DNA of 64,000 bases, from assembly GCA_965223855.1 (NCBI GenBank), contig CBDCXM010000009.1, positions 2,560,001 to 2,624,000 of the forward strand. The letters are read 5' to 3'. Below the pieces are notes generated by a model. The model saw only the letters and a list, made by a program, of their open reading frames with translations, ran no database searches and was not told the DNA's origin. Origin of the DNA: Candidatus Multivoradales bacterium (GTDB lineage: Bacteria; Acidobacteriota; Thermoanaerobaculia; Multivoradales; JAHEKO01). Shown here one piece after another: positions 11,591 through 44,908 of the stretch (the stretch's first letter is position 1; each line of letters starts with the position of its first letter). The translations under genes were made by a program, and so were the position numbers.

Positions 11591-13564
11591 TCAGGGCAGG
11601 GTTGCGGACCAGGCCGAAGTATCCCCCGACTCGAATCCATCGCTGAAGATTCGACTGGTGTAGGAATACACCCCTGCGTTGGTCGCGATCCAGAGGACCG
11701 GCGGGTTCGTGCGAGAGAGATCGACCGATCGCAGATACCGCAGGTCGCGGGGTAACCCCTCCGTGCTGAAAGGTGCCCAGGTGTCGCCGTCGTCGGTCGA
11801 TCGGTACAGCCTCTCGGCCGCGGCGTAGAGTTCGCCAGCCGTGGGTCCGGCGGCGATAGAGACTGCGGCGAACGGTGGATCGAGCAGGTCCCATGTCCCC
11901 CCCGAATCCGTGCTCCGGCGCAACTGGGATTCCGAACCGCTGAAGAAGAGGCTGAACACCGTGCTCGACTCCACCGGATTGGCCTCGATGACCGCAAGAC
12001 ATTGGCCCGACGGCCCTTCGTCGAGAACCTTGGTCCAGACGGAGCCTCCATCCTGACTCCGCTCTACCCAGCACCGCCAGCCACCGTCCAGCCCTCCTCC
12101 GGTGACCAGGAGCAAGTTCCGGTCGTGCGCGGGGAAAGCGACGTCGAGGGGGTAGTACCAGTCCCAGCTCGGGTCGATGGGAAGCTGCTGCGACCAACTG
12201 GACCCGTCGTCGTTGGTGATCGAGAGCGCAGGGGCCTGCGTGGACTGGATGAAGACGTGACCGAGTATCCGCCGGGAGGCCAGATTCGGGTCGATGTCGA
12301 GCGAACCGAAGTTAATGGGGATACCGGCAGGTGTCACCTCAGTCCAGGTGGCTGCGGTGTCCGTGCTCTCCCAGACGCCGGAGAGGTCGAACCAGAAGGC
12401 GCGGGCCGGATCGGTCGGATCTGGGGTGAGTCCACCTGCCGGCTGAGGAAGGCCGGTGTTGGCGGCTGTCCAGGTGGCACCGCCGTCCGTGGTCCTCAAC
12501 CGACCGAACTCGTCGAAAGCGACGACACCGGAAGAAGGTGACGCGGTGACCCGGTCGTCGAACGCCTGCAAGCCGGCGACACGATCGTGCCATGTCGCGC
12601 CGGCGTCGGTGGAACGACGCAGCCCGTAACGGTTGGCGAAGAAGATCTCTGTCGTCGAGCCCGTTGCGAACGCGGCGCGGTACGTCGTGAACTGGCGAGC
12701 TGCGTCCGGTAGCGAGGTCCAGGAAACGCCCCCGTCGGAGCTCGACCAGAGACTCTCGCGACGATTCACCAGCATGTGCAGGGCGTTGGTCGAGGATATG
12801 TCTACGTCGTCCTCGCCCCGGACGTTGTCACTCTCCGACCAGGAATCCCCTCCGTTGGTGGTGACAGCCACGTCCGAGGAGCCCCCTGCGAGAACCGTTC
12901 CGGGAGCCGTGCGTGAGACGGCGATCCGAGCAGGTAGGAACGACAGCGAACCGGCGACGGCGTTCCAGGTCGCACCTCCGTCGGTCGTCCGAATCACTCC
13001 TCCAGAGGTGGCGCAGTAGGCGATCAGGTCTGTCGTCGGATCGAACTCGCACTCGCGCATGAGCGAAGGCCCGGGGTCGGAGACGTGCCAGGTCTGGCCG
13101 CCGTCCAACGACCGGTAGAGACCGGAGGGTACGCTCATCAACAGGAGGACTCGATCCGAGTTGCCCGGGGCCACGGCGATCTGGCGTGGCGTGCCCACTG
13201 GTGACGGGAGGGTCGCCCAGGTGAGTCCCCCGTTCATCGATCGGAGCGCCGGTCGGTCGTCGGTCGAGTCGATGGCGTAGAGCACTCCATCGTCAGCGAT
13301 CGTCAGGTTGCGGATCGTCTGGTTGGCGCCGTCGGCAACTCTCACCCAGCTGGCTCCCGAATCGTCCGATCGAAAGGGGCCGTTCACCGTGCCGACGTAG
13401 TAGCGCCCTGGTTGCGACGAGTCGCCGACGAGGTCGTACACCTTGCCTCCGAACGGCCCGCCGCCCGTCCAGGCGCCACCGCCCGCCGAGACCGCCAGGG
13501 CGTGGAAGGCCACCCAAAGGAGGACGAGGATGATTCTGGTCAAGTTGCGAGCTCCTCTTGCCAT
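11591..13564 (-). CDS. Secreted BNR/Asp-box repeat beta-propeller protein with C-terminal FSDGFESGD tail
   Basis: Signal peptide; more than 10 'SxDGGxTW' Asp-boxes; ends IFSDGFESGDTSAWSATLP. Confidence 0.85.
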   Translation of the reverse strand: MARGARNLTRIILVLLWVAFHALAVSAGGGAWTGGGPFGGKVYDLVGDSSQPGRYYVGTVNGPFRSDDSGASWVRVADGANQTIRNLTIADDGVLYAIDSTDDRPALRSMNGGLTWATLPSPVGTPRQIAVAPGNSDRVLLLMSVPSGLYRSLDGGQTWHVSDPGPSLMRECEFDPTTDLIAYCATSGGVIRTTDGGATWNAVAGSLSFLPARIAVSRTAPGTVLAGGSSDVAVTTNGGDSWSESDNVRGEDDVDISSTNALHMLVNRRESLWSSSDGGVSWTSLPDAARQFTTYRAAFATGSTTEIFFANRYGLRRSTDAGATWHDRVAGLQAFDDRVTASPSSGVVAFDEFGRLRTTDGGATWTAANTGLPQPAGGLTPDPTDPARAFWFDLSGVWESTDTAATWTEVTPAGIPINFGSLDIDPNLASRRILGHVFIQSTQAPALSITNDDGSSWSQQLPIDPSWDWYYPLDVAFPAHDRNLLLVTGGGLDGGWRCWVERSQDGGSVWTKVLDEGPSGQCLAVIEANPVESSTVFSLFFSGSESQLRRSTDSGGTWDLLDPPFAAVSIAAGPTAGELYAAAERLYRSTDDGDTWAPFSTEGLPRDLRYLRSVDLSRTNPPVLWIATNAGVYSYTSRIFSDGFESGDTSAWSATLP

Positions 13565-13775
13565 GAAACGAATGCCACCCTTTCGACCGATAGACGCTTC
13601 GCACGGTGCGGAGCGCGCGCACCTACCTGCCGCTCCACGTTGTCGCTGCGGCCAGGACGTAGAAGTTTAGCAATGCGAGGCAGATGGATGGGGCCTGCGC
13701 GGTGGATGGACGCTTCGGCATGGTGTGCGCTGAGGAATGTCGGACGAGCACGGGTCGGTTGTACGCTGGGTGACG

Positions 13776-16238
13776 ATGTTCCGAGTCGCCCTTCTAGCAG
13801 CGCTCAGCCTCGCCCTTCCTGCCGCCGTCAACGGGGAGAACGGGGCGTTGGGGCTCGAGCACCGGACCTGGCTCGAGGAAGTCGATCCCCTCATCAGCAA
13901 GCAGGAGCGCCGCGAGTTCCTCAAGCTCGAGAAGGACTATCAGCGCGACGCCTTCATCGAGCGCTTCTGGGAGGTGAGGGACCCGTTCCCGGACACCCGC
14001 GTCAACGAGTTCCGGGAGCTCTATTACTCGCGGCTCGAGGACGTCTACGAAGAGTGGGGGGGGCTCGAGGACGATCGGGCCAGGATGTTCGTGCTCAACG
14101 GCGAGCCGAGCGAGAAACTCGAGACCGACTGCGGTTTTCTGACCTGGCCGATGGAGGTCTGGACGTACGCCTATTCGGCGCGGCTCAGTCGGCCGGTTCA
14201 CGCGATCTTCTACCAGCGCAACTCGGGCGGGCCGTTCCGGCTCTGGAATCCGGCCGAGGGACACGCGGTGCTTCTCATGACGATCAACGAGGAGGAGCAT
14301 CCCGAGGACCAGCGCAACGTCTTCCATAGCGTCGTTCTGGAGTACTGCGCCGAGTTCTGGGACGACGCGCTGGCGATGCTGGAGACCTTCACGATCGTAG
14401 AGCGGGAGATGGGGGCGAGCTCCGCGCAGGCTGCGAGCAGCCCGCGATCGCTCGACCCCGAGTGGCTGGGCGGCTTCCGCGCCTTCTCGACCGACGTTCC
14501 CCAGGACGCTCCAACCCTGTCGGCGGAGCTCGAGGTGGCGTTCGTCGGGCGCCATCAGAGCCGGACTCGCGTGGCCGGTACCTTCCTCGTTCCCCGCACG
14601 GCGGCGACCCTGGCGGGAGAGGGGGAGGCGGCCTCCTACAACTTTCAGCTCACCGGCGAGGTTTTGCGAGACGGCGCGCTCTTCGAGTCGTTCCGCTACC
14701 GCTTCGATCTTCCGCTGCAACGACTCCGCGCGGACGAGCTTTCGTTGCAGTTCGAGCGGTTGCTCCGGCCCGCGGCGTATTCCCTGGTGCTCAAGCTCGA
14801 GGATCTCAACGGCGGCACGGTTCTGAGACGTGAGGAGCCGCTCGAAGTGCCCGCCGTCGTAGCGACGGCGAGCGCGGATGCCGCCGCCGGCGAGGAGGAG
14901 ACGCCTGACGAAGAGCCTTCGGTGGCCCTCGGCGTGCCCTCGGAGGACGTTCTCAGCGGCGCCACGCGGTTTGTCGCCGCGGTGGAGGGTGAAGCCGTGA
15001 AGAAGGTGAGGTTCCTGCTCGACGGGATTGAGGTTCTCACCAAGACGAGGCCGCCCTATAGCGTCGAACTCGACCTCGGCGGCGTGCCGCGCTCGCACAC
15101 CGTCCGCGCGGTGGCGATCGGAGCCGACGGCTCCGAGCTGGCGACCGACGAACTGCTTCTCAATCCGGGAAAGCAGAACTTCGTCGTCCGCCTGGTCGAG
15201 CCGCGCGACGGAGCGGACGTAGAGCGGTCGGTGAGGGTGCGGGCCCAGGCTTCGGTGCCCGAGGGGAAGAGACTCGATCGTCTCGAGCTCTTCGTCGGTG
15301 AGCAGCGGGTCGCGACGCTCTACCAGGAGCCGTTCGTCCAGAGTGTGAATCTCGATCCGGGCGAGCTCCAGTATCTGCGGGCGATCGGCCACCTCGAGGA
15401 CGGCAGCCAGAGCGAGGACCTGGTGGTCGTCAATTCCGGTCAGTTCGGGGCGACGGTCGACGTGCGGCTGGTCGAACTCTATGCGGCGGTCCTCGACGGC
15501 AACGGCTCACCGGTGGAGGGGTTGCAGGCGTCGGACTTCTCGGTGGTCGAGGCAGGCTCCGAGCAGGAGCTGTTCCGCTTCGAGTTCCTGCGCGACCTGC
15601 CGCTCTTCGCCGGCCTGTTGATCGATACCTCCGGATCGATGGCCGAGCACTTCGAGACAGTCCACCGGATGGGAAGCGCGTTCCTCGAGTCGACGATCGG
15701 GCCTCGAGACCGGGCGGCCGTGATCACCTTCAGCGAGCAGCCGCGTCTCGCTTCCGCCTTCACGGCGGACCATCCGACGCTCTCGAGCGCCCTCGCGGGC
15801 CTGCGCGCCGAGCAGGGGACGGCTCTGTGGGACAGCGTCGTCTACGCGATCGACTACTTCGGCGGCGTCAAGGCGCAGCGAGCGGTCGTTCTGCTGTCCG
15901 ATGGTGACGATCGCCGCAGTCAGCATACCTTCGACGAGGCCCTGCGCTTCGCCCAGAGCAGCGGCGTGACGGTCTACACGGTGGGGCTCGATCAGCAGGT
16001 GACCCGACAGGGCCGGCGGCTGCTCGCGCGCCTTGCCGAGGGCACCGGCGGCAGGAGTTACTTCCTCGGCGATCTGAACGGTCTCGGCGACGTCTATGAC
16101 GAGATCGAGCGCGAACTGCGATCGCGCTACCTGCTGGCGTACAGGTCGTCGAGTGAGGGCGCCGGCTTCCGCCCGATCGAGATCCAGGTCGCCGATCGGG
16201 ACCTCGAGATCCGCGCCCTCAAGGGCTACTTCCCCTAG
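13776..16238 (+). CDS. GWxTD domain + Ig-like + VWA domain protein
   Basis: Signal peptide; 'FIERFW.VRDP', 'DDRARMFVLNGEP' (GWxTD-like); 'PPYS'/'EPF' Ig modules; MIDAS 'IDTSGSM', 'GTALWD', 'LSDGDD', 'TGG'; TACGCT-N8-ATG supports start 13776. Confidence 0.85.
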   Translation: MFRVALLAALSLALPAAVNGENGALGLEHRTWLEEVDPLISKQERREFLKLEKDYQRDAFIERFWEVRDPFPDTRVNEFRELYYSRLEDVYEEWGGLEDDRARMFVLNGEPSEKLETDCGFLTWPMEVWTYAYSARLSRPVHAIFYQRNSGGPFRLWNPAEGHAVLLMTINEEEHPEDQRNVFHSVVLEYCAEFWDDALAMLETFTIVEREMGASSAQAASSPRSLDPEWLGGFRAFSTDVPQDAPTLSAELEVAFVGRHQSRTRVAGTFLVPRTAATLAGEGEAASYNFQLTGEVLRDGALFESFRYRFDLPLQRLRADELSLQFERLLRPAAYSLVLKLEDLNGGTVLRREEPLEVPAVVATASADAAAGEEETPDEEPSVALGVPSEDVLSGATRFVAAVEGEAVKKVRFLLDGIEVLTKTRPPYSVELDLGGVPRSHTVRAVAIGADGSELATDELLLNPGKQNFVVRLVEPRDGADVERSVRVRAQASVPEGKRLDRLELFVGEQRVATLYQEPFVQSVNLDPGELQYLRAIGHLEDGSQSEDLVVVNSGQFGATVDVRLVELYAAVLDGNGSPVEGLQASDFSVVEAGSEQELFRFEFLRDLPLFAGLLIDTSGSMAEHFETVHRMGSAFLESTIGPRDRAAVITFSEQPRLASAFTADHPTLSSALAGLRAEQGTALWDSVVYAIDYFGGVKAQRAVVLLSDGDDRRSQHTFDEALRFAQSSGVTVYTVGLDQQVTRQGRRLLARLAEGTGGRSYFLGDLNGLGDVYDEIERELRSRYLLAYRSSSEGAGFRPIEIQVADRDLEIRALKGYFP

Positions 16239-16239
16239 C

Positions 16240-16300
16240 CCGTGTGCCCTCCCGCTGCGGTGGGAGGGCACACGGTCCGGTCTGAAGGCGGACCGGACCG
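16240..16300. terminator. Tandem GC-rich hairpins between convergent genes
   Basis: CCGTGTGCCCTCCC/GGGAGGGCACACGG (14 bp) then CGGTCCGGTC/GACCGGACCG (10 bp); no U-tract. Confidence 0.5.
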
Positions 16301-16304
16301 CGGG

Positions 16305-17411
<1,107 letters not shown>

Positions 17412-17712
17412 CTCGTTACCCCTTTCGAGGGAAGAGTTTTCGGTCGCGCCGTTCGGGGAGGCTCATGGCAGTGTAGCAAAGGGCTCGATCGGCGCCCCGG
17501 CGTTGCTTGCATTCGCGCTTGGGCGCGTGGGACACTTTCCGGGTCGTGGCGCAGTGCCCCGACGTCAGTCACGGACCGCACTTCCGATTCCCTAACAAAG
17601 AGAGAGTCAGATTCGTCGCAGACCGGGCTGAGCTGTATCAAGCGGCGGGCTCGCCCCGCTCAGGAAGCGCCGGACAGGCGCTGAGAGTTTTGAAGAAGGA
17701 GTAGCTAGCACC

Positions 17713-17916
17713 ATGGCAAACGAAGGTACCGTCAAGTGGTTCAACGAGTCGAAGGGGTACGGTTTTCTGTCGCAGGATGACGGGCCGGACGTCTTCGTCC
17801 ACTATTCGGCGATCCAGGGAGACGGTTTCCGCACCCTGAACGAGGGTGAGCGGGTGAGCTTCGACATCGGCGAGGGTCCGAAGGGGCCTCACGCGATCAA
17901 CGTCGTTCGCCTTTAG
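17713..17916 (+). CDS. Cold-shock protein (CspA family)
   Basis: '[14 protein letters not shown]' (RNP1), 'DVFVHYSAI' (RNP2); AAGGAG RBS. Confidence 0.97.
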
Positions 17917-17946
17917 AACGCCTGAAGATTCCAGAAGAAGTTTCGG

Positions 17947-17982
17947 CGCCCCGTCGGAGAGTCCGGCGGGGCGTTTTCCTTT
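17947..17982 (+). terminator. Intrinsic terminator of the cold-shock gene
   Basis: CGCCCCGTCGGA-GAG-TCCGGCGGGGCG-TTTTCCTTT. Confidence 0.8.
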
Positions 17983-18010
17983 CCACACAGCGCCGTCTCG
18001 GCCGGGACGG

Positions 18011-18739
18011 CTATTGCGAAGGGTCGGTGCTGGAAGTCCCGTCTTCCGACGGCTGACCCAGTTGCAGCGCATACCTCCCGCGTGGCCCCTCGAGGACGAC
18101 CGTCCGCTCCGAGATCTCGACGATTCGAAGAGACAGGACCGGATCGCCGATCGACAGCAGCGCTCCGTTGATCACCGCCGACGGCGCGGTCGGCGACCAG
18201 GCGATGCCGCTGAGGAGAATCTCCCCCTCCGGTAGAACCAGCGAGCCCACGTGGTACCACGTGTCGCCCGCTGGTGGTGCGGTCGCCGGCACGGGATCGG
18301 GAGCCGGTTCCGGTGGGGGAGGTGAACTCTCGGCTCCACTCCCAGGGCCGGCGGCGGCTCGGTCGTCGGGAGCGCCGGCCCGCGCCGGCCTGCCTGCCGG
18401 CTCGGTAGCCGGTTGTCCTTGAGATTCTGTGCTCTCTGCAACGGCGTTCTGCAGGTCGGTGTGCGGCGGCGTCTCGCCGACTCGAGCCTGCGGCTGCGAT
18501 TCGGCCCGCTTGGCTACGGGAGCCGTCGGCTCGACCGGTCGTCCCGCGGGATCGTCGTTCAGTCGCAGCACCAGGACCAGGAGCACCGCCACCGCAGCGA
18601 GCCCCGAGATCCACCAGGCCGGAACGGGCGAGCGTTTCCGCGGTGGCGGCGGCAAGCTCGGGCGACCCTTCGACGGCTGCCCTTCCCGCTCCGCGGCCTC
18701 CGCCCGCGCTCGTTTCAGGGCGTCGTTGACGAGGCTCAA
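18011..18739 (-). CDS. GspB/ExeB-like membrane-anchored protein
   Basis: TTG start overlapping the upstream stop; '(M)SLVNDALKRA', TM helix, Pro/Ala linker, C-terminal 'LSGIAWS...SAVING....GD....LRIVEI'. Confidence 0.7.
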   Translation of the reverse strand: MSLVNDALKRARAEAAEREGQPSKGRPSLPPPPRKRSPVPAWWISGLAAVAVLLVLVLRLNDDPAGRPVEPTAPVAKRAESQPQARVGETPPHTDLQNAVAESTESQGQPATEPAGRPARAGAPDDRAAAGPGSGAESSPPPPEPAPDPVPATAPPAGDTWYHVGSLVLPEGEILLSGIAWSPTAPSAVINGALLSIGDPVLSLRIVEISERTVVLEGPRGRYALQLGQPSEDGTSSTDPSQ

Positions 18740-19545
18740 GACGCCTCTCCTTCGAGGTCGCGAATCGCCCGCCTCACGTGCCGCCCTCGGAGCTCGAAGG
18801 TCTGATCGACGTATCCCGCCAGCAGCGCCTTGTCGGTCACGGCGTTGATGAGTCGCGGCACGCCGCGAGAGTAGCGCTGCACGCGTCGTACCGCCCAGCT
18901 GGAGAAGCTCGGTGCCGGGTCCGCCCCTGCCACTGCGAGCCTGTGGCGGATGTAGGAGTCGGTTTCCTCGATCTTCAGTGGACGGAGGTGGTAGCGGACG
19001 GTGATCCGTTGCCGCAGCTGCTCGAGCTGTCGCAGCTTGTCGCGCAGCTCCGGCTGGCCGATGAGGATGATCTGCACCAGCTTGCGCTCGTCGGTCTCGA
19101 GATTCGAGAGCAGTCGAATCTGCTCGAGAGCTCCGAGGGTGAGTGCCTGGGCGTCGTCGACGATCAGTACGACGTCGCGCTGGTTGCCGAACTGCTCGAG
19201 CAGGAAACCGTTGAGACGCTCGAGCAGCTCCACCCGGTCGGTCACCTCGGCGTCGAGCTCGAACTCCCGCAGGATGGTGCGGAGGAGCTGCGTGTTGTTC
19301 ATCCGCGGGTTGAGCACAAGGGCGGTGGCAAAATCTCGAGCATCGAGTTGCTGCAGCAGGGCGCGACACAGCGTCGTCTTGCCGGCGCCGATCTCACCGG
19401 TGATCTGAATGAAGCCCTTGCGCTCCCGCAACCCGAACAGCAGGTGGTTGAACGCCTCCCGGTGCTTGGTGCTGAAGAAGAGGAACCGCGGGTCCGGCGT
19501 GATGTTGAAGGGCGGCTCGTCGAAGCCGTAGAAGTCGTAGTACAC
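18736..19545 (-). CDS. ExeA/GspA family AAA ATPase
   Basis: 'MYYDFYGF.E.PF.ITPDPRF', Walker A 'GEIGAGKTT', Walker B 'LIVDDAQ', 'LIGQPEL', 'QLRQRI', 'GVPRLIN'. Confidence 0.92.
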   Translation of the reverse strand: MYYDFYGFDEPPFNITPDPRFLFFSTKHREAFNHLLFGLRERKGFIQITGEIGAGKTTLCRALLQQLDARDFATALVLNPRMNNTQLLRTILREFELDAEVTDRVELLERLNGFLLEQFGNQRDVVLIVDDAQALTLGALEQIRLLSNLETDERKLVQIILIGQPELRDKLRQLEQLRQRITVRYHLRPLKIEETDSYIRHRLAVAGADPAPSFSSWAVRRVQRYSRGVPRLINAVTDKALLAGYVDQTFELRGRHVRRAIRDLEGEAS

Positions 19546-31783: not shown

Positions 31784-33031
31784 TCAGGGGACCGTCGCCG
31801 ACCAGGCGCCTGTGTCCCCCGATTCGAAGCCGTCGGAGAACACCTCGGGGCCTTCGAGCCGGTAGAGCGTGCCGCCGTTGCTGAGGTAGAGCTCGCCGGC
31901 GCTGTCCTCGCCGAAGCTGGTGACCGCCGGAAGGTCGATGTCGAGCAGTTGGGGCGTCCAGTTGCCGCTCGCCTCGGCCGCGGCCCAGAGGTTCCCCGTG
32001 CACCAGTCACCGTAGAGGTAGACCCCTGAGAGCGCGCTGATGCGACTGCCACGGTAGACGAACCCACCCGTGATCGAGCAGTCGCCGCCGCTGTGGCCGT
32101 AGTCGAGGATCGGCGCTGTGTAGCCGCTGTCGAAGCACGAAGCGGTGGCGCCCGGGCAGTTCGGGTTGATCGGATCGGGGTCGTGACAGGCGGTCCCTTC
32201 CATTACCTGCCAGCCGTAGTTCTCGCCTCCCGGCGAGGAGGCCGGTTGGCGGGAGACCTCTTCGCGCAAGTCCTGCCCGACGTCGGCGATGAAGAGGTCG
32301 CCTGTCGCACGATCGAAGGAGATTCGCCATGGGTTGCGGAAGCCGAGCGCCCAGATCTCGTCGAGCGGCGGGCCGGCACCGACGAACGGGTTGTCGGCCG
32401 GAATGCCGTGGTAGGGAGGGGTAGCGACGCTCTGATCGACGTCGATCCTCAGTACCTTGCCGTGCAGCGTGGACGGGTTCTGGCTGCGGCACTCCGGGTC
32501 GTTCTGGCCGCCGCCGTCGCCGAGCGCGATGTAGAGGTAGCCGTCGAGCGGGCCGAAGGCGATTGTGCCGCCCCGGTGCTGCCCGGTGAACTGCGGGATC
32601 GTCAGCAGGACGACGCCGGACGCTCTATCGGCGACGTTCGGGTCGGCCGAGACTTCGTAACGGGCGATGATCGAGTTCGAGGCCGTGTCGGTGTAGTGGA
32701 CGAAGAAGTAGCCGTTCGTGACGTAGTCCGGGTGAAACGCCATGCTCTTGAGACCCCCCTCGAGCCCCGATCCGGTCGAACCCGACAGGTCGAGGAACGG
32801 CGTCGGCAGCACCTGCCCCTCTTCGTAGACGACGATCTCGGAGTACTGCTCGACGAGGAACAGACGCTCGTCTCCGGCGTGATGGATCGAGACGAGATTG
32901 GAGAAGCCGCCTTCGAGCGGGTTGAGAGAGAGGGTGGGCAGTCCCTCTGTCTCGAGCGTTGTCGGCTCGAACGTCGCGGCCTCCGACATGGCGGCCGAGA
33001 GTGTGAGCATCAGCAGGGTGCGAGCGAGCAT
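31784..33031 (-). CDS. PQQ-dependent sugar (glucose/sorbosone) dehydrogenase family protein with FSDGFESGD tail
   Basis: 'MAFHPDY', 'H.GG.I.FGP.DGYLYI..GDGG', 'GKVLRID', 'IPADNPF', 'GFRNPWR.SFD', 'DVGQ', 'NYGW'; ends VFSDGFESGDTGAWSATVP. Confidence 0.9.
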   Translation of the reverse strand: MLARTLLMLTLSAAMSEAATFEPTTLETEGLPTLSLNPLEGGFSNLVSIHHAGDERLFLVEQYSEIVVYEEGQVLPTPFLDLSGSTGSGLEGGLKSMAFHPDYVTNGYFFVHYTDTASNSIIARYEVSADPNVADRASGVVLLTIPQFTGQHRGGTIAFGPLDGYLYIALGDGGGQNDPECRSQNPSTLHGKVLRIDVDQSVATPPYHGIPADNPFVGAGPPLDEIWALGFRNPWRISFDRATGDLFIADVGQDLREEVSRQPASSPGGENYGWQVMEGTACHDPDPINPNCPGATASCFDSGYTAPILDYGHSGGDCSITGGFVYRGSRISALSGVYLYGDWCTGNLWAAAEASGNWTPQLLDIDLPAVTSFGEDSAGELYLSNGGTLYRLEGPEVFSDGFESGDTGAWSATVP

Positions 33032-36456: not shown

Positions 36457-36533
36457 CGGGGTCCTCGTCTCGTAGTTGTCGGTCGCATTCTACTCGCGGG
36501 ATCGGCGGGGTCGGGAGCCTCGCGAAAGGGGGG

Positions 36534-36590: not shown

Positions 36591-36608
36591 TCGCGGCAGG
36601 CTGAAGGC

Positions 36609-37070
36609 GTGTCGGGGAGTGCTGGCGGCTCGGATCCGCGTCCAGGGGGAGCTTTTCGCGGATCCGCGGCGCTCGACCCTGCATCCCGGGTCTCCTGCGA
36701 ACTCGACGGATTGCTGGATGCCCGCCTCTTCAAGGCGCTGGCCGATCCGAATCGAGTCGTACTGCTGAGCAGGCTGGCCGGCTGCAGGACGCCGCAGACG
36801 GTCGGTGCCCTCAACGACTGCTGCCCGGTCGACCTGTCCGTCGTGTCGCGACATCTCGCCGCGCTGCGCGATGCAGGACTCGTGCGAGCCGAGAAGCGTG
36901 GGCGCGAGGTCTACTACGAGGTCTGCTGCGGCGAGGTCGCGGCCTGGTTGCGCCGTCTGGCCGACGCCTTCGAGACCTGCGCCGCGACCACAGAAGAGAA
37001 CTCGTCGGACGCCACGGGTCCGAGCCGTCAGGACGGTCCCTCGGGGACCGGGAAAGGAAGTCGCGCATGA
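36609..37070 (+). CDS. arsR: ArsR/SmtB family transcriptional repressor
   Basis: 'FKALADPNR', 'SVVSRHL..LRDAGLV...KRGREVYY'; Cys pairs DCCP and VCCG; start uncertain (GTG 36609 assumed); ATGA overlap with arsM. Confidence 0.8.
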   Translation: MSGSAGGSDPRPGGAFRGSAALDPASRVSCELDGLLDARLFKALADPNRVVLLSRLAGCRTPQTVGALNDCCPVDLSVVSRHLAALRDAGLVRAEKRGREVYYEVCCGEVAAWLRRLADAFETCAATTEENSSDATGPSRQDGPSGTGKGSRA

Positions 37071-37948
37071 GTGTGCACGAATCCGTTCGCAAGCGAGTGC
37101 GATCGAGCTACGGCGCGGCGGTGAGCGAGGGTCGCAGTTGTTGCGGCGACGCCGTACCGCGAGGTGTCGCCGTCGAGACCGCAGGCTACAGCCGGGAGGA
37201 GATCGCCTCGCTGCCGAACGAAGCGGTCGTCAACTCGTTCGGCTGCGGCAATCCGCTGGCCTTCAGCGAGGTCGCCGAGGGTCAGACCGTGCTCGACCTC
37301 GGCAGCGGCGCCGGGATCGACCTGTTGCTGGCCGCTCAGAGAGTCGGCCCGACCGGCAGAGTGATCGGGGTCGACATGACCGACGAGATGATCGCCCGCG
37401 CCCGCGACACGGTGTCGAAGGCGGGCCTCGCCAACGTCGAGATCCGCAAGGGGCTGATCGAGGAGCTTCCCGTGGAGTCGTCGAGCGTCGACTGGGTGAT
37501 CTCCAACTGCGTCATCAACCTGTCGCCCGAAAAGGACCGCGTGTTCGCCGAGATCTCGCGGGTGCTGAGGCCGGGTGGCCGGGTGTCGATCTCCGACATC
37601 GTCGTCGAATCGATGCCGTGGTGGCTGCGCAGGAGTCGGAGACTGCACTGCGCCTGCGTGGCCGGCGCGATCTCGGAGGACGACTACGTCGAGGGTCTGA
37701 GGCGGGCCGGCCTCGTGGAGGTCGAGGTGCCCGAGAGGCTCGTCTACGAGGCCTCGCAGCTCGAGGCGCTCGCCACTTCCGACATCGCGACCGTTCGCGG
37801 GCCTGCCTTCATGCGGAAACTCGCCGGTGGTCTGGTCGGACGGGCCGCGCGAGGGTTCGAGGGCAAGGTGTGGAGTGCGAAGTTCGTCGGCCGGCTGCCC
37901 GAGGAATCCGAGACTTCGAACCACGGAGCCCCGAGCTGCTGCTCCTGA
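37067..37948 (+). CDS. arsM: Arsenite S-adenosylmethionine methyltransferase
   Basis: 'SCCG', 'SFGCGNP', 'VLDLGSGAG', 'GVDMT.EM', 'ISNCVINL.P.K', 'CVAGA'; next to arsR. Confidence 0.88.
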   Translation: MSVHESVRKRVRSSYGAAVSEGRSCCGDAVPRGVAVETAGYSREEIASLPNEAVVNSFGCGNPLAFSEVAEGQTVLDLGSGAGIDLLLAAQRVGPTGRVIGVDMTDEMIARARDTVSKAGLANVEIRKGLIEELPVESSSVDWVISNCVINLSPEKDRVFAEISRVLRPGGRVSISDIVVESMPWWLRRSRRLHCACVAGAISEDDYVEGLRRAGLVEVEVPERLVYEASQLEALATSDIATVRGPAFMRKLAGGLVGRAARGFEGKVWSAKFVGRLPEESETSNHGAPSCCS

Positions 37949-37975
37949 CGATGCGGGGACGGCCCTGGCCGTCCG

Positions 37976-38656
37976 CTACTCGTCGAGTTCGGCATTCCCG
38001 GCGTCGGCGGTAGCTGCCGGGTCTGCTGCCGGATCGAGGGACGGCGGCAGCAGGATGCCGCCCGAGATCACCATCCGTACTCCCTCCTCGACGGTCATCG
38101 GCAGGTCGGTGGTCCGGTCGCGGGGTACCAGCAGAAGGTAGCCGCTGGTCGGATTCGGTGTCGTCGGCAGGAAGACGAGGACGAAGTCGTCGGTGCGCGG
38201 GTGGACCTGCGGCCACCTGCTGCTGCCGGTGACGAAGGCGATGGCGAACATATCCTTGTGGGGGTACTCGATCAGGACCACTCGCTTGAACGCCTCGCTC
38301 TTGTCACGTGCGAGCGCCTCCATCACACCCTTGGTGCCGAGGTAGATCGCCCCGCCGACCGGGATGCGCGTGATGAGGGTCTCGAGCGCGCCGACGATTC
38401 GACGGCCGACGAAATTGCTGGACAGCCAGCCGAGGAGCAGGACCGACAGCAGGGTCAGGATGAGTCCGAGCCCGGGCACGTAGAAGCCCGGGAACCAGGG
38501 GTCCATCCACTGCTGGATCGCCGGCGCGAAGAAGCCGTCCATCACCTGGAACAGCTTGATCAGCACCCAGGCCGACAGCGCCACCGGGGCGAGGATCACG
38601 AGTCCGGTGAGGAAGTTGCGCCTGAGCCGCGCTCGGATGGGGGTTCCTTCGTTCAT
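37976..38656 (-). CDS. DUF502 family membrane protein
   Basis: 'FLTGL', 'RIP....IY', 'VLIEYP', 'VFLPTTPNPTSG', 'ISGG'. Confidence 0.9.
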   Translation of the reverse strand: MNEGTPIRARLRRNFLTGLVILAPVALSAWVLIKLFQVMDGFFAPAIQQWMDPWFPGFYVPGLGLILTLLSVLLLGWLSSNFVGRRIVGALETLITRIPVGGAIYLGTKGVMEALARDKSEAFKRVVLIEYPHKDMFAIAFVTGSSRWPQVHPRTDDFVLVFLPTTPNPTSGYLLLVPRDRTTDLPMTVEEGVRMVISGGILLPPSLDPAADPAATADAGNAELDE

Positions 38657-38680
38657 CCCTGTCGTCTTGGTGCCGGTCCG

Positions 38681-40591
38681 TCAGCCGGCCAGCCTGTCCT
38701 CGATCTGCTCGAGGCTGCCGCGATGACCGAGCACGGTCACACGGTCGCCTCGGCGCAGGCGAGTGTAGCCGTGGCAGAGGATCGATGCGCCGTCACGCTC
38801 GACCGAGAGCACCAGAACGTCGAGCGGGAGCTGCAGGTCGCGCAGGGCGATTCCGTGGAGCTGCGGGCTGCGGACGGGGATCTCGACGATGTCGCGATCG
38901 TCGTCCATCCCGACCACCATGCCGGTGAGGGCGGGGGAGCGCACGAAATGATCGAGCACGTTGACGAGCGCCACGCTCGGATCGATCGCGGTCGCCCCAT
39001 AGCGTCGGCAGGCGGCGCCCGCTTCCTGACTGCTGACCCGCGCGACGACGTTCGAAACGCCGAGCTCGTCGTGCGCCAGGCGGCTGAGCTCGACGTTGGC
39101 GTCTTCGTCCATCAGGCCGATCAGGGTTCGCGCCGAGTCGGCACCGATCCGCCTCAGCTCGGAGGCCGACAGCTGATCGATCCGGACGACCTCGAGGTCG
39201 GGCGGGACGTCGACCGGAACCTCGCGCCGGGTGACGAGGGTCGTGCGCCAGCCGTGATCGAGGAGTTGACGGGCGAGCGCCCAGGCCTGGGTGTCGAGGC
39301 CGAAGACCAGGGCTCGAGGGGCGCCCGAGACCCCATCGGTCAGATCGGCACGAGCCTCTCCGACCCGCCGAAGGATCCATTTGGCCGGCGGCGGCCCCAG
39401 CACCTGGTTGACGACGATCACGGCGATCATCGTCGTGGCGAAAGTGCCGCCCCATTCTGGGAAGTCGACCGCGACCTCTTTCGCCAGGCCGAGCCCGATC
39501 CCGGCCTGGGTCAGCATGCCGAACCAGACTCGTCGACGGACGTTGGCGGGGGCGCCACCGACCCAGCCGCCGATCCAGGTCCCGGCGATCATCGCCACCA
39601 GCCGGACGAGGAGCAGCAGCAACGCGACTCGCCACGCGATTCCAAGCGAGGCGAGGTCGAGGGAGGCGCCGGCGAGCGTGAAGAAGCCGAGGTATACGAA
39701 GGGCCCGGTCGCTTTCAGCACGCGCTCGAAATCGTTGCGGAAGCTCGACAGGTTGCTGACGACGAAGCCGGCCACGAGGCAGACGAGCAGTGGCTCGATG
39801 AAGATCTCGAACGGCCCTCCCTCGTGGGTCGCCCGGCGGATCGCGCCGCTCGCGGCGTAGACGCCCAGGCCTACGCCGAGCAGCAGCAGAGCTCGGAGTT
39901 GGAGATTGCGCGTCAGGCTGAGGAGCCAATGGAGAAGACCGCCGACCAGCGCTCCCGCCACCCCGGCGACCAGCAGCTCTCCCGCTACAAGCAGCAGCAG
40001 ACCGGCCTCGAAGTCCGCCGATCGCAACAGAACGTCGGCGACTGAGGTGCTGACGGCGAAGAGCAGGATCACCACCACATCGAGAGCGACCGTCACTCCC
40101 ATCAGCAGTCGGGTGAAGGGACCTCGTGCACGCAGTTCCGACACCAGCGCCATGAGTGAGGACGGCGATCGGGAGACGAGGATCGCCGCCGCGACGAAGG
40201 CGACTCCGAGCCGGCCGCGCTCGTCGAGGCCGGCGAGGAAGGGGACCGACTCCCCGAGCGAGGTGAGAACCGGCACCACGAGGGCGTACGAGGCGGCGAC
40301 GATGCCGAAGGTGATCCACCAGATGCGGCGCAGCTGCTGGCGGATCTCCCGGTAGTGGAGCTCTGCGCCGGCGGCGAAGGCGATGAACGACAGCGCGATC
40401 TGATCGAGCACCCGGAGACGAACGACGTCTTCGGCCGTCAGCACGCCGAGGACGTACGGCCCGATGAGGATGCCGGCGGCGAGGAAGCCTGTGATGACCG
40501 GCAGGCGGAGTCGCTTCGCCCCCCGGCCGATCCACTCGGCGGAGAGCATCAGGACCCCGAACAGGGTCAGAAGAAGCGCGAAGTCAGACAC
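38681..40591 (-). CDS. Cation:proton antiporter with TrkA-N and TrkA-C domains (K+/H+-like)
   Basis: About 12 TM helices, 'FIAF.AG.EL', 'ARGPFT', 'ALD', 'QAGIGLGL'; C-terminal RCK 'HG.T.L..GD.VTVLG'. Confidence 0.85.
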   Translation of the reverse strand: MSDFALLLTLFGVLMLSAEWIGRGAKRLRLPVITGFLAAGILIGPYVLGVLTAEDVVRLRVLDQIALSFIAFAAGAELHYREIRQQLRRIWWITFGIVAASYALVVPVLTSLGESVPFLAGLDERGRLGVAFVAAAILVSRSPSSLMALVSELRARGPFTRLLMGVTVALDVVVILLFAVSTSVADVLLRSADFEAGLLLLVAGELLVAGVAGALVGGLLHWLLSLTRNLQLRALLLLGVGLGVYAASGAIRRATHEGGPFEIFIEPLLVCLVAGFVVSNLSSFRNDFERVLKATGPFVYLGFFTLAGASLDLASLGIAWRVALLLLLVRLVAMIAGTWIGGWVGGAPANVRRRVWFGMLTQAGIGLGLAKEVAVDFPEWGGTFATTMIAVIVVNQVLGPPPAKWILRRVGEARADLTDGVSGAPRALVFGLDTQAWALARQLLDHGWRTTLVTRREVPVDVPPDLEVVRIDQLSASELRRIGADSARTLIGLMDEDANVELSRLAHDELGVSNVVARVSSQEAGAACRRYGATAIDPSVALVNVLDHFVRSPALTGMVVGMDDDRDIVEIPVRSPQLHGIALRDLQLPLDVLVLSVERDGASILCHGYTRLRRGDRVTVLGHRGSLEQIEDRLAG

Positions 40592-40768
40592 GGGTCCCTC
40601 GGCTCCGGCTTGCGGAGCCGGGGGAGGGTATCAGCACCTCGGCGGACGGAGCGCCGGCCCGTCTTTCTCGCCCTGCCATGGCGTGGCAGCGCGGATCTGG
40701 CGAGATAGTTCCTCAAGTTGACGATTCCGCCACTTTTCTCGAGAACGGATCTCGGTCAGCATTCCGCC

Positions 40769-41707
40769 ATGAACGATGGATCGAACGCCCGGGCAGCCTC
40801 GGCATGGGCTCTCGCCCTCGCCTTCGCGGCCGTCTACATCATCTGGGGCTCCACGTATCTGGGGATCCGGGTCGCGATCGAGACGATTCCGCCGTTTCTG
40901 ATGGTCGGGGTGCGGTTCTTCGCCGCCGGGGCGATCCTCTTCGCGTGGTCGCTGTGGCGGGGCGACCCGCTGCCGCGGGCGGTCCACTGGCGCTCGGCGG
41001 CGATCATCGGCGCTCTGCTGCTGGTCTCCGGCAACGGGCTCCTGGCGTGGGGAGAGAAGACGATCCCTTCGGGGGTCGCGGCGCTGATCGTCGGCACGGT
41101 GCCCCTGTGGATGGTGATCCTCGAGGCATTGCGACCGTCCGGCGACCGGCCCGGGAAGGCGGTCATCCTCGGGCTGGCGCTGGGGACCGTGGGCATCGCG
41201 GTTCTCGTCGGCCCCGGTGATCTCGGAAAGCCGCTCGATGGGGCAGGCGCCACCGCCATCCTGGTGGCGGCGCTCTCGTGGGCGGCGGGGTCGATCTACT
41301 CGCGGAGCGCCCCGCTGACTTCCTCGACCCTCCAGAACGTCGGCATGGAGATGCTCGCCGGCGGGATGCTGCTCGGCTTGGTCTCCGTCTCGCTCGGTGA
41401 GAGCGTCGAGTGGGCTGCCGTCTCCGCACGCTCCCTGTGGGCGCTCGTCTATCTGTCGGTGGTCGGCGGCCTCGTCGGCTACTCCGCCTACCTGTGGCTG
41501 CTGAAGGTCTCGACCCCGGCGAAGGTGGCGACCTATGCCTATGTCAACCCGGTGGTGGCGGTAATCCTCGGATGGGCGGTAGCCGGCGAGGTCGTCGATC
41601 GACGGGTCGTGCTGGCCGGAGCGGCCGTGCTCGCCGCCGTGATCCTGATCACGACGAGTCGCGCAGCTGGAAAGGACGGGAGCGGCGAGATCGATGCGGA
41701 GCGTTAG
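40769..41707 (+). CDS. EamA/DMT family transporter (YedA-like)
   Basis: 'VYIIWGSTY', 'PPF....RF', 'SGVAAL', 'TYAYVNPVVAV.LG'. Confidence 0.92.
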   Translation: MNDGSNARAASAWALALAFAAVYIIWGSTYLGIRVAIETIPPFLMVGVRFFAAGAILFAWSLWRGDPLPRAVHWRSAAIIGALLLVSGNGLLAWGEKTIPSGVAALIVGTVPLWMVILEALRPSGDRPGKAVILGLALGTVGIAVLVGPGDLGKPLDGAGATAILVAALSWAAGSIYSRSAPLTSSTLQNVGMEMLAGGMLLGLVSVSLGESVEWAAVSARSLWALVYLSVVGGLVGYSAYLWLLKVSTPAKVATYAYVNPVVAVILGWAVAGEVVDRRVVLAGAAVLAAVILITTSRAAGKDGSGEIDAER

Positions 41708-41716
41708 GATCCCGCC

Positions 41717-42682
41717 ATGCGCCTGACCGTCGCGGCTGCCGTCTACGACGGCCTGCTCGCCTTCGAGTACGGGTTGGCTCGAGAGATCCTGGGCCGCGAT
41801 CGCAGCGACCTGGCGGCCGACTGGTACGACTTCCTGCCGTGCCGTGTCGAGCCCGGGAGCCTGACGACGAGCCACGGCATGGTGTTCGAACCACGCGGAT
41901 CCCTCGAAGACCTGGCGGCAGCGGACATCGTGCTCGTCGCCGGATGGCGAGAGCCGCTCGAGAGGCCGCCGGCCGCGTTTCTGGAGGCGCTGTCCGTGGC
42001 CCATGAGCGTGGAGGCCATCTCGTGACCATCTGCACCGGGAGCTTCGTCCCTGCCTGGGCGGGCCTGCTCGACGACCGCCGCGTCACGACCCACTGGATG
42101 CACGCGCCGACCATGGCCGAGCGTTTCCCGCGGGTCCGGCTCTCGGTCGATGCTCTCTACGTGCGCGACGACAGCGGCCCGGGACCGATTTCGACCTCCG
42201 CCGGCAGCGCGGCCGGTCTCGATCTGAGCCTGGCGCTGGTGCGCGAGCACTTCGGCATCGCCGTCGCCAACGCGGTGGCGCGCCGGATGGTCGCGCCGGC
42301 GCATCGCGAGGGGGGACAGACGCAGTATGCGGAGGCGCCGGCAGCCGGCCGTGACGATTCGGCGATGGGGCCTCTGCTCGACTGGCTGGTCGAGCACCTC
42401 GACCAACCGCTCAGACTGGAGGAGGTCGCGTCGAAGTTCGGCCTGTCGGGCCGCACCCTGCAGCGCAGGTTTCGCGAGCAGACGGGGGACAGCCCTCATC
42501 GCTGGCTCGTCTCTCAGCGCCTCGGCAGGGCACGTGAGCTCCTCGAGTCGACCGGCCTGAGCGTCGAGCGTGTGGCGACGGAGTCGGGCCTCGGCTCGGC
42601 GGCGAACCTCCGCAAGCACATGGCCCGGCAGCTGGGGACGACACCTAGGGCGTATCGGACGGCGTTCCGGGCCGGAGACTGA
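41717..42682 (+). CDS. GlxA/FtrA family AraC regulator (DJ-1 domain + HTH)
   Basis: 'ICTG.F..A.AGLLD..R.TTHW', 'TSAG.AAG.DL', 'R.GGQ.Q', 'S.RTL.RRF'. Confidence 0.92.
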   Translation: MRLTVAAAVYDGLLAFEYGLAREILGRDRSDLAADWYDFLPCRVEPGSLTTSHGMVFEPRGSLEDLAAADIVLVAGWREPLERPPAAFLEALSVAHERGGHLVTICTGSFVPAWAGLLDDRRVTTHWMHAPTMAERFPRVRLSVDALYVRDDSGPGPISTSAGSAAGLDLSLALVREHFGIAVANAVARRMVAPAHREGGQTQYAEAPAAGRDDSAMGPLLDWLVEHLDQPLRLEEVASKFGLSGRTLQRRFREQTGDSPHRWLVSQRLGRARELLESTGLSVERVATESGLGSAANLRKHMARQLGTTPRAYRTAFRAGD

Positions 42683-42698
42683 GGGCGAGGCCCAGGGG

Positions 42699-43274
42699 TC
42701 AGTAGAGGCCGGGGACGAAGCGGTGGGTGCGGCGGGCGTAGTCGCGCCAGCGCCGACCGAAGGCCTCCTCGAGAACGGCTTCCTCGATCCGGACCCGGTA
42801 GCTGAGCGCGACGGACATCGGCACGAGGGTGAGGACCAGCGACAACCAGGTGCCCATGCCGAAGCCGCAGCCCGCAGCGGCGATCAGCATGCCGCTGTAG
42901 GAGGGGTGTCTCACATGCCGGTAGAGGCCGGTCTGCACGATCTCGTGTCCCTCGCGGACGGCGACGTTCGTGGTGAAGAGCCTGCCGAGGGCGCGGATGG
43001 CCGTCCAGCGCAGAGCCAGTCCCGAGACGACGAGGCCGCAGCCGACCAGGCTCCGCAGCGAAGCGGAAAGACCCCACGACGAGATCCCGGCCCGGCTCGC
43101 GAACGAGGCGAGGATGAACGAGGTCATGACGACGATCCAGATCCACCGTTCGCTGCCGGCATCGGAGGCCGCATCGTCGGCGTCCGTCGCGCGCCGGCTC
43201 CGCCCGAGGAGGACCTCGAAGCTCACCCACAGCAGCATGGCGATAGCGATCGGCGTCGGCATCGCGCGGAGCAT
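42699..43274 (-). CDS. Isoprenylcysteine carboxylmethyltransferase family protein
   Basis: 'LG..F', 'H.IV.TG.YR.VRHPSYSG', 'RVRIEE..L...FG..W..Y'. Confidence 0.88.
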   Translation of the reverse strand: MLRAMPTPIAIAMLLWVSFEVLLGRSRRATDADDAASDAGSERWIWIVVMTSFILASFASRAGISSWGLSASLRSLVGCGLVVSGLALRWTAIRALGRLFTTNVAVREGHEIVQTGLYRHVRHPSYSGMLIAAAGCGFGMGTWLSLVLTLVPMSVALSYRVRIEEAVLEEAFGRRWRDYARRTHRFVPGLY

Positions 43275-43387
43275 AGCCGTGGTGTTGGCCCTGCGGCGGC
43301 CCGAGCCCGGGCGGATCGCTCCGAAGGCTCCGACCGGCTGCGGGGAAGTGCATTGTCCGCTCCGGGAGCAGGCGAGACGATAGAGGC

Positions 43388-44908
43388 ATGAGATGGAGAC
43401 GCGTAGTTCGAGTTCCGCCGATGTCGATTCTCGTCGCTGCGCTGGCCGCGGGCTCGCTCTCGGCCGGCACGCTGGAGGTCGTCACCCTCGATCCCCCCCG
43501 TCACACGCTGGCGGCAAAGGACGCGACCGTGACGGTGACCTTCGACCAGCCGGTGGATCCGGCCACGGTCGATGCTGATTCGTTCCGGGTCTTCGGCCGC
43601 TGGAGCGGCCCGGCGGCGGGACCTCTGACGATCGGTGGCGGCGGTACCACGGTGACGCTGACCCCGACTCGCCCGTTCTCGGCGGGGGAGAGCGTGCACG
43701 TCAACCTCTCGCACGATCTGGCGTCGCTCGGAGGGGCTTCGCTGAGGATGGCGGGCTACACGTGGTCGTTCGCCGTCGAGGTGCGGCCGACGCCGGGCGA
43801 CTTCGCTCTCGTCGACACCCTCACCGTGCTCGACGGCGGTCCGACGCCGCGCATCTACGGAGGCCTGGCGACCGATCTCGACAACGACGGCTGGCTCGAT
43901 CTGTCGGTGATCAACGAGGACACCGCCGACATCCGCGTCTTCCCGAATCGGGCGGACGGCAGCGGGCTTTTCGACCCGTTTCTCACGCCGCCTTCGCCGG
44001 TCGGCTTCGGTGCGAGCCCCAACGAACCGGCCGACTTCGACAACGACGGCTTTGCCGACATCACCACCGGCAACGCCTTCGAGTCTCGCGTTTCGGTGCT
44101 GCTGGGACGCGGTGACGGGACGTTCGACCCCGAGGCGGTGCACGTCGTCGGCGCCGGCCCGAAAGGGATCGCGGTGCTCGACGTCGACGGAGACGGCGAC
44201 ACCGACATCGTCAGCGCCAACGTGACGGCGGACAACCTCAATCTGCTGCGCAACGACGGCAGCGGAACCTTCGCCGTGGAGGCGCCGTTCGACGCCGGCA
44301 GCGAGGAGTACGCGCTGACCGCCGGAGACATGAACGAGGACGGCATCGCCGATCTGATCGTCGGCACCCGTGCCGGTTCGAGCGTGCATGTTCTCGCCGG
44401 CAACGGCGACGGCACCTTCACCACGGTGGAGACCGAGGCGGCGGGGGTGGCGCTGTGGATGATCGGCGTCGGGGACGTCAACGGTGACGGTCACCTCGAC
44501 GTCGCGTCGGCCGACGGGTTCAGCAACAGCGGTTCGATCTTTCTCGGCAACGGCGACGGCACGCTCGATCCGCCGACGACGATCGGCGTTGCCGGACTGA
44601 CGACGGCGACCGATCTCGGCGACATCGACGGTGACGGTGATCTCGATTGGATCCTCTCCGCTTTCGGCGGCAACGAGTGGACGCTTTACGAGAACGACGG
44701 CGCCGGCAACTTCCAGCTCATCCGCACCTTCCCGGCACCGTCGAACCCGGCTTGTGCCGCCTTCTTCGACGCCGACAACGACGGCGCACTCGATCTGGCG
44801 CTCTTTGACGAGATCGACAACGTCATCCAGATCTTCCACAACGGGGAGATCTTCGCCGACGGCTTCGAGAGCGGCGACACGACAGCCTGGTCGGCGACGG
44901 TGCCGTGA
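43388..44908 (+). CDS. Secreted Ig-like + FG-GAP repeat protein with FADGFESGD tail
   Basis: N-terminal 'VTFDQPVDPATV' Ig module; 7 'D.D.DG..D' repeats; ends IFADGFESGDTTAWSATVP. Confidence 0.87.
   Translation: MRWRRVVRVPPMSILVAALAAGSLSAGTLEVVTLDPPRHTLAAKDATVTVTFDQPVDPATVDADSFRVFGRWSGPAAGPLTIGGGGTTVTLTPTRPFSAGESVHVNLSHDLASLGGASLRMAGYTWSFAVEVRPTPGDFALVDTLTVLDGGPTPRIYGGLATDLDNDGWLDLSVINEDTADIRVFPNRADGSGLFDPFLTPPSPVGFGASPNEPADFDNDGFADITTGNAFESRVSVLLGRGDGTFDPEAVHVVGAGPKGIAVLDVDGDGDTDIVSANVTADNLNLLRNDGSGTFAVEAPFDAGSEEYALTAGDMNEDGIADLIVGTRAGSSVHVLAGNGDGTFTTVETEAAGVALWMIGVGDVNGDGHLDVASADGFSNSGSIFLGNGDGTLDPPTTIGVAGLTTATDLGDIDGDGDLDWILSAFGGNEWTLYENDGAGNFQLIRTFPAPSNPACAAFFDADNDGALDLALFDEIDNVIQIFHNGEIFADGFESGDTTAWSATVP

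Follow-up and report, generated by a model that had tools for sequence, protein, structure and literature searches.

The C-terminal domain (CTD) that marks the cargo of the T9SS (type IX secretion system) is 70-100 amino acids long. It is described as a beta-sandwich domain (PMC4804311), and the peptidase PorU is described as cleaving it and attaching anionic lipopolysaccharide (LPS) (PMC4560394, PMC8545088). A C-terminal tail of 19 residues is found on three proteins encoded in a stretch of 64,000 nucleotides from Candidatus Multivoradales bacterium (Acidobacteriota, class Thermoanaerobaculia; assembly GCA_965223855.1, contig CBDCXM010000009.1). This stretch, G000:C9:2560001-2624000, is referred to as the window. 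The source genome, G000, is a 9-contig assembly of 4.52 Mb with 68% GC and is 92% complete. The tail may be a portable address tag that is read by a PorU-type sortase independent of the T9SS, which would put the cargo on a surface glycan. This reading is offered tentatively, its chances being a little short of even. The three genes and their tails are as follows (positions within the window):

11591..13564, minus strand: cargo gene 1, 657 amino acids, signal peptide, BNR/Sortilin-Vps10 propeller, matching an F510_1955-family glycosylhydrolase model above its cut-off
11594..11650, minus strand: 19-codon tail IFSDGFESGDTSAWSATLP of cargo gene 1 (BNR/Sortilin-type), stop at 11591-11593
31784..33031, minus strand: cargo gene 2, 415 amino acids, signal peptide, GSDH beta-propeller (pyrroloquinoline quinone (PQQ)-type sugar dehydrogenase) by Pfam
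31787..31843, minus strand: 19-codon tail VFSDGFESGDTGAWSATVP of cargo gene 2 (PQQ sugar dehydrogenase), stop at 31784-31786
43388..44908, plus strand: cargo gene 3, 506 amino acids, signal peptide, Big_5 and FG-GAP_3 repeats by Pfam
44849..44905, plus strand: 19-codon tail IFADGFESGDTTAWSATVP of cargo gene 3 (FG-GAP protein), stop at 44906-44908

The consensus of the tail in these three proteins is [IV]FxDGFESGDTxAWSATxP. All three have N-termini resembling signal peptides, and their bodies have no Pfam family in common. An earlier note on this DNA had reported a nearly identical C-terminal peptide on three unrelated secreted proteins. This is confirmed, the three open reading frames (ORFs) being as it described them, and extends to about 86 tailed ORFs genome-wide. 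Its account of the tail as having neither a transmembrane helix nor a basic end nor a terminal aromatic residue holds as well.

A six-frame scan of G000 yields 84 matches to the pattern F..GFE.G.{2,5}W, 77 of which have exactly five residues between the Trp and the stop. With a looser regular expression 86 ORFs carry the tail, roughly 2-3% of a crude set of 3282. A hidden Markov model built from 76 canonical tails recovers six more C-terminal variants, which have DDFE or a missing Phe. The abundance of the tail is far above chance, and the DNA pattern of the tail, reversed as a control, has no match in 401 genomes scanned. In the 76 canonical tails the residues F, D, G, F, E, G and W never change. 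Of these tails 63 end in Pro, and 10 of the remaining 13 end in Q, N or D. The Ser at position -12 is encoded by AGC (27), TCG (24), TCC (11) or AGT (5), the stop codon is TGA in 51 and TAG in 25, and no conservation is seen downstream of the stop. Selection acts on the peptide and not on a DNA repeat, because seven residues are invariant, synonymous sites are free and nothing is conserved past the stop. Peptide-level selection, argued earlier from the window, is thus upheld over the whole genome. With respect to position, 86 copies in G000 are C-terminal; three directly follow a signal peptide, and one more is separated from the stop by about 31 residues. An equal frequency inside proteins, which the earlier note had named as evidence against its proposal, is not seen. 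Two of the copies at the mature N-terminus, directly after the signal peptide, are encoded outside the window at C9:748651-749562(+) and C9:2463250-2464269(-); one of these proteins continues with a PPLPAP linker and the other is a beta-helix protein. The module can therefore also occupy the other end of a protein.

The tailed proteins look like a secretome. A strict signal-peptide heuristic is passed by 66 of the 86 tailed ORFs versus 829 of 2478 other ORFs in G000, a background that is inflated because several start codons were tried for each ORF. This is the proteome-wide enrichment for signal peptides that had been proposed as a check. About 12 of the 20 tailed ORFs that fail the heuristic have an obvious leader by eye, and the rest are over-long ORFs. 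A DUF1501 cargo protein has an RR leader, presumably of the twin-arginine (Tat) type. The presence of tails on Sec-type cargo and on one Tat-like cargo suggests that recognition of the tag comes after export, whichever of the two routes is taken. A Pfam family is found in 52 of 80 cargo proteins and the other 28 have no match. The peptidases among them belong to the S8, M36, M28, M14, M12B and trypsin-like classes. Other enzymes are a sulfatase, GH39/GH5 proteins, GDSL lipases, ThuA, four GSDH proteins, and CCP/MauG and multihaem proteins; many FG-GAP and BNR propellers, DUF11, CHRD, LamG and beta-helix proteins complete the set. The bodies are unrelated, have soluble folds and are typical of secretomes. 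Three consecutive tailed genes at C9:2451172-2456190, outside the window, encode a sulfatase, a ThuA-like protein and an M12B metallopeptidase.

Neither Pfam nor NCBIfam has a model that covers the tail, in searches with the whole window proteins or with the tails alone, even at E<=10. No relevant paper was found for the motif strings in the searchable literature (papers under a Creative Commons licence, bioRxiv supplements excepted, with relevance judged by title and the opening of the abstract), and none of the searchable papers was found to deal with a C-terminal feature of secreted Thermoanaerobaculia proteins. The AlphaFold2 model of the GSDH cargo, predicted from an alignment of 50 sequences with a conserved tail, has a mean predicted local distance difference test score (pLDDT) of 87. 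Its tail residues 396-415 are without secondary structure and their pLDDT falls from 52 to 43. The tail is predicted not to be part of the cargo fold. Completion of the protein's own fold, which the earlier note had listed as an outcome contrary to its idea, is not seen, the model leaving the tail undocked on the propeller.

Relatives of the cargo proteins indicate what the tail replaces. The tail expression is matched by 40 of 120 GSDH homologues listed (the query included), and four more are obvious variants. A tail-less homologue, P0117, has just a short unrelated end past the last propeller strand. Among tail-negative relatives, the extension is absent from the GSDH orthologues of G266 and from one G314 copy, the second G314 copy having an unrelated longer extension; it is likewise absent from the choice-of-anchor B orthologue of G314. 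According to NCBIfam, the cargo of G000 includes a full-length choice-of-anchor B protein (4e-151), a choice-of-anchor Q and CSLREA protein, a second CSLREA protein and a ScyF-like protein related to a PEP-CTERM family. The best model for the M36 cargo is 'T9SS-dependent M36', which is matched at positions 21-791 of 869 and hence without its C-terminal end; weaker matches are to the myxosortase- and rhombosortase-dependent M36 families. To judge from these alignments, the tail occupies the slot in which homologous families carry interchangeable C-terminal sorting signals. This position is the strongest indirect argument that the tail has a role in sorting or anchoring.

The distribution of the tail is patchy and lineage-restricted. 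A scan of 185,579 species genomes gives at least 125 loci, and the matches listed are almost all in metagenome-assembled genomes labelled Thermoanaerobaculia, Holophagae or Acidobacteriota. They contain 126 instances of the motif. In 74 of these the Trp is followed by five residues, in 109 the distance to the stop is 0-8 residues, in 9 the Trp is followed by 13-49 residues and in 8 the flank contains no stop. Clade variants of the long tail, again among the matches listed, stop 0-8 residues past the Trp. At one locus, L109 (Holophagae-labelled, CAWDGW010000008.1), a hydrophobic stretch and then RLKER come between the motif and the stop, an arrangement that looks tripartite and may hint at an ancestral or hybrid form. 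In the phylum Acidobacteriota the motif is present in 18 of 401 genomes, and high counts are confined to G000 (82), G005 (79), G165 (66), G119 (44) and G276 (13). No tail was found in the sister genomes G314 (from the family of G000), G143 and G373 (from the family of G165) or in nine genomes of one genus of the same order. It is also absent under a looser pattern from G314, G143, G266 and G365.

A shorter form is found in another phylum. Gammaproteobacterial GSDH orthologues end in IFxNGF[DE] followed by the stop, whereas the acidobacterial ones carry the long form. A scan for the short form gives at least 125 loci, and the matches listed are mostly from Lysobacterales/Xanthomonadales, including the cultured Dokdonella ginsengisoli, D. 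soli, Tahibacter soli and Pseudofulvimonas gallinarii. At least 111 end right at GF[DE], with a pattern that itself required a stop-like codon. A match to the tail pattern is present in 64 of 101 Xanthomonadales genomes (up to 55 in each), and a backward control gives 0-1. Both lineages have the core IFx[DN]GF[DE], which every canonical long tail contains, at the C-terminus of unrelated exported proteins, and both have a PorU-like peptidase. They differ in length, the Thermoanaerobaculia tail adding SGDTSAWSxT[VIL]P (12 residues past the core) and the Xanthomonadales form comprising 7-9 residues. By sequence, the Xanthomonadales tail appears to be the same core without the SGDTSAWSxTVP extension.

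The tail is a lineage-restricted tag at the end of exported proteins, maintained as a peptide and placed where known sorting signals would be. It probably directs a sorting step after export. The lead to a candidate enzyme came from the gene neighbourhoods of tail-poor genomes, where no dedicated enzyme adjoining the tails was found; they include a 3144-residue DUF11 protein in G176 that contains the motif internally and has a Peptidase_C25 domain at its C-terminus. G000 has four C25 matches, two of which are proteins of 869 and 895 residues with signal peptides, encoded at C8:16055-18664 and C9:2931319-2934006, both outside the window. The greater part of their sequence matches the NCBIfam model NF033707 'T9SS sortase PorU', with E-values of 3.9e-63 (213.5 bits) and 8.8e-54 (182.6 bits), covering positions 67-744 and 338-744 of 1095 and leaving the C-terminal third unmatched. 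The C25 model PF01364 is matched over positions 1-373 of 374 (5.4e-77 and 1.5e-71). The closest solved chain to the G000 protein is PorU 6za2 (1.7e-33), ahead of the gingipains (about 1e-8). On these matches the G000 proteins would be relatives of PorU and not members of the equivalog. His640 and Cys682, invariant in 10 aligned PorU-like sequences, probably form the catalytic dyad. Aligned over their full length, the PorU-like proteins of the two phyla are 37-38% identical, about as much as those within the class (38-43%). PorU-like proteins with readable C-termini carry no tail themselves. No match to the PorV model NF033710 was found in G000, the control being matched in Bacteroides; SprA (TIGR04189) had no match in G000 and its control matched nowhere either, and GldK/L/M/N were not searched for. 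A giant ORF of about 3295 residues in G000 (C9:156946-166833, outside the window) has Peptidase_C25 at its extreme C-terminus, and similar C25 giants of 2300-3700 residues occur in G131, G276, G176 and G314.

The PorU-like genes lie among genes for glycan synthesis. A PMT_2 (GT-C) glycosyltransferase gene adjoins the orthologue at four of six Thermoanaerobaculia loci (G000a, G005, G165 and G266a), and is not a neighbour at the second G000 or the second G266 locus. The G000 orthologue also adjoins genes for GT4 and GT2 glycosyltransferases, a sulfatase-family protein and an MMPL transporter. In four of five Xanthomonadales, GT4 and GT2/sulfotransferase genes adjoin the PorU-like gene. A sulfotransferase-like neighbour is common to both phyla, the G000 neighbour aligning to the Xanthomonadales sulfotransferase domains. 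The longer relatives in G119 and G276 adjoin an AsnB-like gene. One PorU-like homologue of 1394 residues, P0203, contains a GT4 domain, Glyco_trans_1_4 (PF13692), and is either a true fusion or a merge by gene calling. Another C-terminal ending was noticed in G000, where LGY[LIVM] stands among the final 10 residues of 31 ORFs, the majority ending in ...L(R/E)(A/S/D)LGY[LIV]x, for example ...EALRALGYLD. One such ORF, C8:14601-15926, adjoins a PorU-like gene. The LGY ORFs examined form one 36-member paralogous family, of which a scanned member, g0365, is a Sulfatase-family protein; the ending looks like a feature of this family and not a tag on unrelated proteins.

Tail and peptidase tend to occur together. 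In a sample of the acidobacterial class, a C25 protein is present in seven of seven tail-bearing genomes versus 11 of 32 tail-negative ones, and a PorU-like/C25 relative is present in five of five further tail-bearing acidobacterial genomes, making 12 of 12 in total. Full-length PorU-like orthologues with 40-45% identity occur in G000, G005, G165 and the tail-less G266. Three further tail-bearing genomes with a full-length orthologue have 87, 84 and 57 tail-pattern matches, and the range over the six genomes with both orthologue and tails is 57-87. Each of five named tail-bearing Xanthomonadales has exactly one PorU-like gene, encoding 930-980 residues, and at least three of the five proteins have a lipobox by eye. 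Over the Xanthomonadales as a whole, a PorU-like match is found in 48 of the 64 genomes with a tail-pattern match versus 5 of the 37 without.

A mechanism that fits these observations can be outlined. The roughly 86 proteins would first be exported across the inner membrane by Sec, and at least one of them by Tat. The tail would then act in the cell envelope, leading either to release across the outer surface or to covalent attachment to it. A PorU-like C25 cysteine peptidase would recognise the unstructured tail and cut it off. The peptidase would transfer the cargo to a surface glycan, made by the products of the flanking glycosyltransferase (and sulfotransferase) genes. Such a system would work without the T9SS translocon. 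That a PorU-like enzyme reads the tail, cleaves it and attaches the cargo to a glycan is suggested by analogy with PorU. Complex prediction for the PorU-like protein and the C-terminal 44 residues of the GSDH cargo gave a score of 0.01, which is no answer either for or against.

Attribution of the tail to a PorU-like sortase is put forward with reserve, because the strong co-occurrence is broken by exceptions either way, and several observations weigh against it. Both G000 proteins score under the NCBIfam cut-off for PorU (420 bits). The Fisher value for the Xanthomonadales counts (1.7e-9) is overstated, because related genomes are not independent. Nine Xanthomonadales genomes (completeness unstated) have 14-41 tail matches and no PorU-like match, and five of these (41, 28, 21, 21 and 21 matches) have no significant Pfam C25 match either, so that the peptidase is not necessary. 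In the other direction, G266 has two full-length orthologues and neither the long nor the short tail. Together with the C25 proteins of 11 of the 32 tail-negative class genomes, this means that the peptidase is not sufficient. An alternative tail was sought in G266: the choice-of-anchor B query found nothing, and the GSDH orthologue ends without an extension. The tail-rich genomes G119 (44-63 matches), G505 (38) and G508 (34) have no full-length orthologue, just longer relatives of about 30% identity. Among 13 PorU-like loci examined, a single tail gene lies nearby. The proposal provides cargo and peptidase with no route across the outer membrane in place of the T9SS, and tail and C25 could both simply mark lineages that are rich in secreted proteins.

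The same data could be accounted for by a sorting or outer-membrane translocation signal that is read by another machine, such as a translocon, a shuttle or a type II-like system, the C25 link being a coincidence of lineage or the C25 proteins being just secreted proteases. All the evidence for an address tag applies equally to this explanation, and the exceptions to the C25 link are clear in both directions. The cargo includes S8, M28 LapA-like, GDSL and sulfatase proteins, and these classes are also typical of type II secretion substrates. Against such a machine, no candidate for it emerges from the neighbourhoods of the tail genes in G000: what is enriched there are large paralogous families (of about 300, 900 and 1050 residues, not run against Pfam) or a cassette that is found only upstream of FG-GAP_2 cargo. 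No secretion gene was found in the window near the three tail genes, whose neighbours are unrelated transporters, peptidases and regulators. The marker PF03934 for the type II secretion system, run on 39 genomes, is uninformative, since the model also matches Bacillus and other controls. Set against the PorU-like relative in every one of the 12 tail-bearing acidobacterial genomes, another machine is rather unlikely.

The earlier note had suggested an orphan donor strand that docks cargo onto a surface scaffold or secretion machine. On this view the tail would dock non-covalently, as a donor beta-strand or hairpin completing an incomplete fold on a surface scaffold or S-layer protein, and would not be cleaved. 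The tail motif presumably resembles the start of ConA/LamG-like jelly rolls, and its lack of structure on its own protein in the AlphaFold2 model is compatible with such a role. The motif can also stand alone as a module, with Pro-rich linkers after it, inside a protein or at its mature N-terminus, and one N-terminal copy in G000 appears by eye to run directly into a beta-rich domain. No acceptor protein was found, however, and the fixed distance to the C-terminus (77 of 84 matches) and the 7-9-residue form in Xanthomonadales fit recognition of a terminus better than insertion of two strands. The evidence points somewhat more to a cleavage or attachment enzyme (PorU-like C25) than to donor-strand docking, which is quite improbable. 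The tail might instead have no sorting role and be what is left of a truncated domain, the junction of a recombination event or a generic cap that stabilises or masks the C-terminus. In favour of this, most copies of the motif lie inside proteins in two other Acidobacteriota, G230 (4 of 5) and G285 (2 of 2), with 28 to 837 residues after them. It is very improbable, however, given that seven residues are invariant in 76 copies while synonymous sites change freely, that the position of the stop is strict and that the tail is confined to exported proteins. Some lineages moreover have dozens of copies and their sister genomes none, tail-less orthologues are otherwise intact, and the tail is not packed on the fold in the model.

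Some further features of the window are recorded here. A protein of 1398 residues encoded at 49699-53895(+) has four Lamin Tail Domain (LTD) stretches and does not carry the tail. BamB-like PQQ_2 propeller proteins are encoded at 47137-48507 and 56355-57593.

Should the tail prove to be a signal for sorting or attachment, the exoproteome of a widespread uncultured acidobacterial class would be marked by it (about 86 proteins in G000 and 34-87 tail-pattern matches in the tail-rich relatives scanned), and annotators could use it to predict which enzymes act outside the cell. It would also represent a new class of signal, shorter than the T9SS domain and without the membrane anchor of sortase and exosortase signals. 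PorU-type peptidases would gain a role outside type IX secretion. If a PorU-type mechanism holds, the system would be new and common to two phyla. In its most extended form, this proposal is of an envelope-sorting system with a tag of 7-9 or 19 residues, a T9SS-free C25 transpeptidase of the PorU type and a possibly sulfated glycan, the peptidase and glycan module having moved between Acidobacteriota and Gammaproteobacteria by horizontal transfer; in this full form it is unlikely. The core form in the cultured genera Dokdonella, Tahibacter and Pseudofulvimonas makes the hypothesis directly testable.

Judged by its sequence, the tail would work in the manner of the known sorting signals at C-termini, yet it does not have the features by which any of them is defined. 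It resembles the beta-signal of the beta-barrel assembly machinery (BAM) in being a C-terminal peptide with aromatic residues that would be read in the periplasm. Unlike that signal, it ends in Pro and not in an aromatic residue, and the cargo consists of soluble enzymes and propellers, not barrels. With the tripartite signals (LPXTG/sortase, PEP-CTERM/exosortase, GlyGly-CTERM/rhombosortase and MYXO-CTERM/myxosortase) it shares a short, lineage-restricted C-terminal signature on many unrelated exported proteins, and it appears to take the same slot in the choice-of-anchor B, choice-of-anchor Q and M36 families. It differs from them in having no hydrophobic helix or basic cluster, the Trp being followed by five residues (S-x-T-[VIL]-P) and the stop. 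No PEP-CTERM-like C-termini were found in G000 beyond those of ordinary membrane proteins, and cognate sorting enzymes were not searched for.

Differences from the T9SS CTD (type A TIGR04183/PF18962, type B TIGR04131) and PorU are also evident. The tail has 19 residues (7-9 in Xanthomonadales) and is a coil in the model, not a beta-sandwich domain, and the CTD models had no match on the three whole proteins (E<=1 or 0.01), on the tails alone (E<=10) or on 80 cargo proteins. The peptidases do not align beyond about positions 745-780 of the 1095 in the PorU model. The hosts are Acidobacteriota and Gammaproteobacteria, not Bacteroidota. At the same time, both are C-terminal signals free of transmembrane segments, carried by Sec-exported hydrolases and adhesins with dozens of cargo proteins per genome. 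The M36 cargo is nearest to the T9SS-dependent family, and PorU-like C25 peptidases are encoded among glycan-synthesis genes, a setting that recalls the attachment of cargo to anionic LPS as described for PorU (PMC4560394, PMC8545088).

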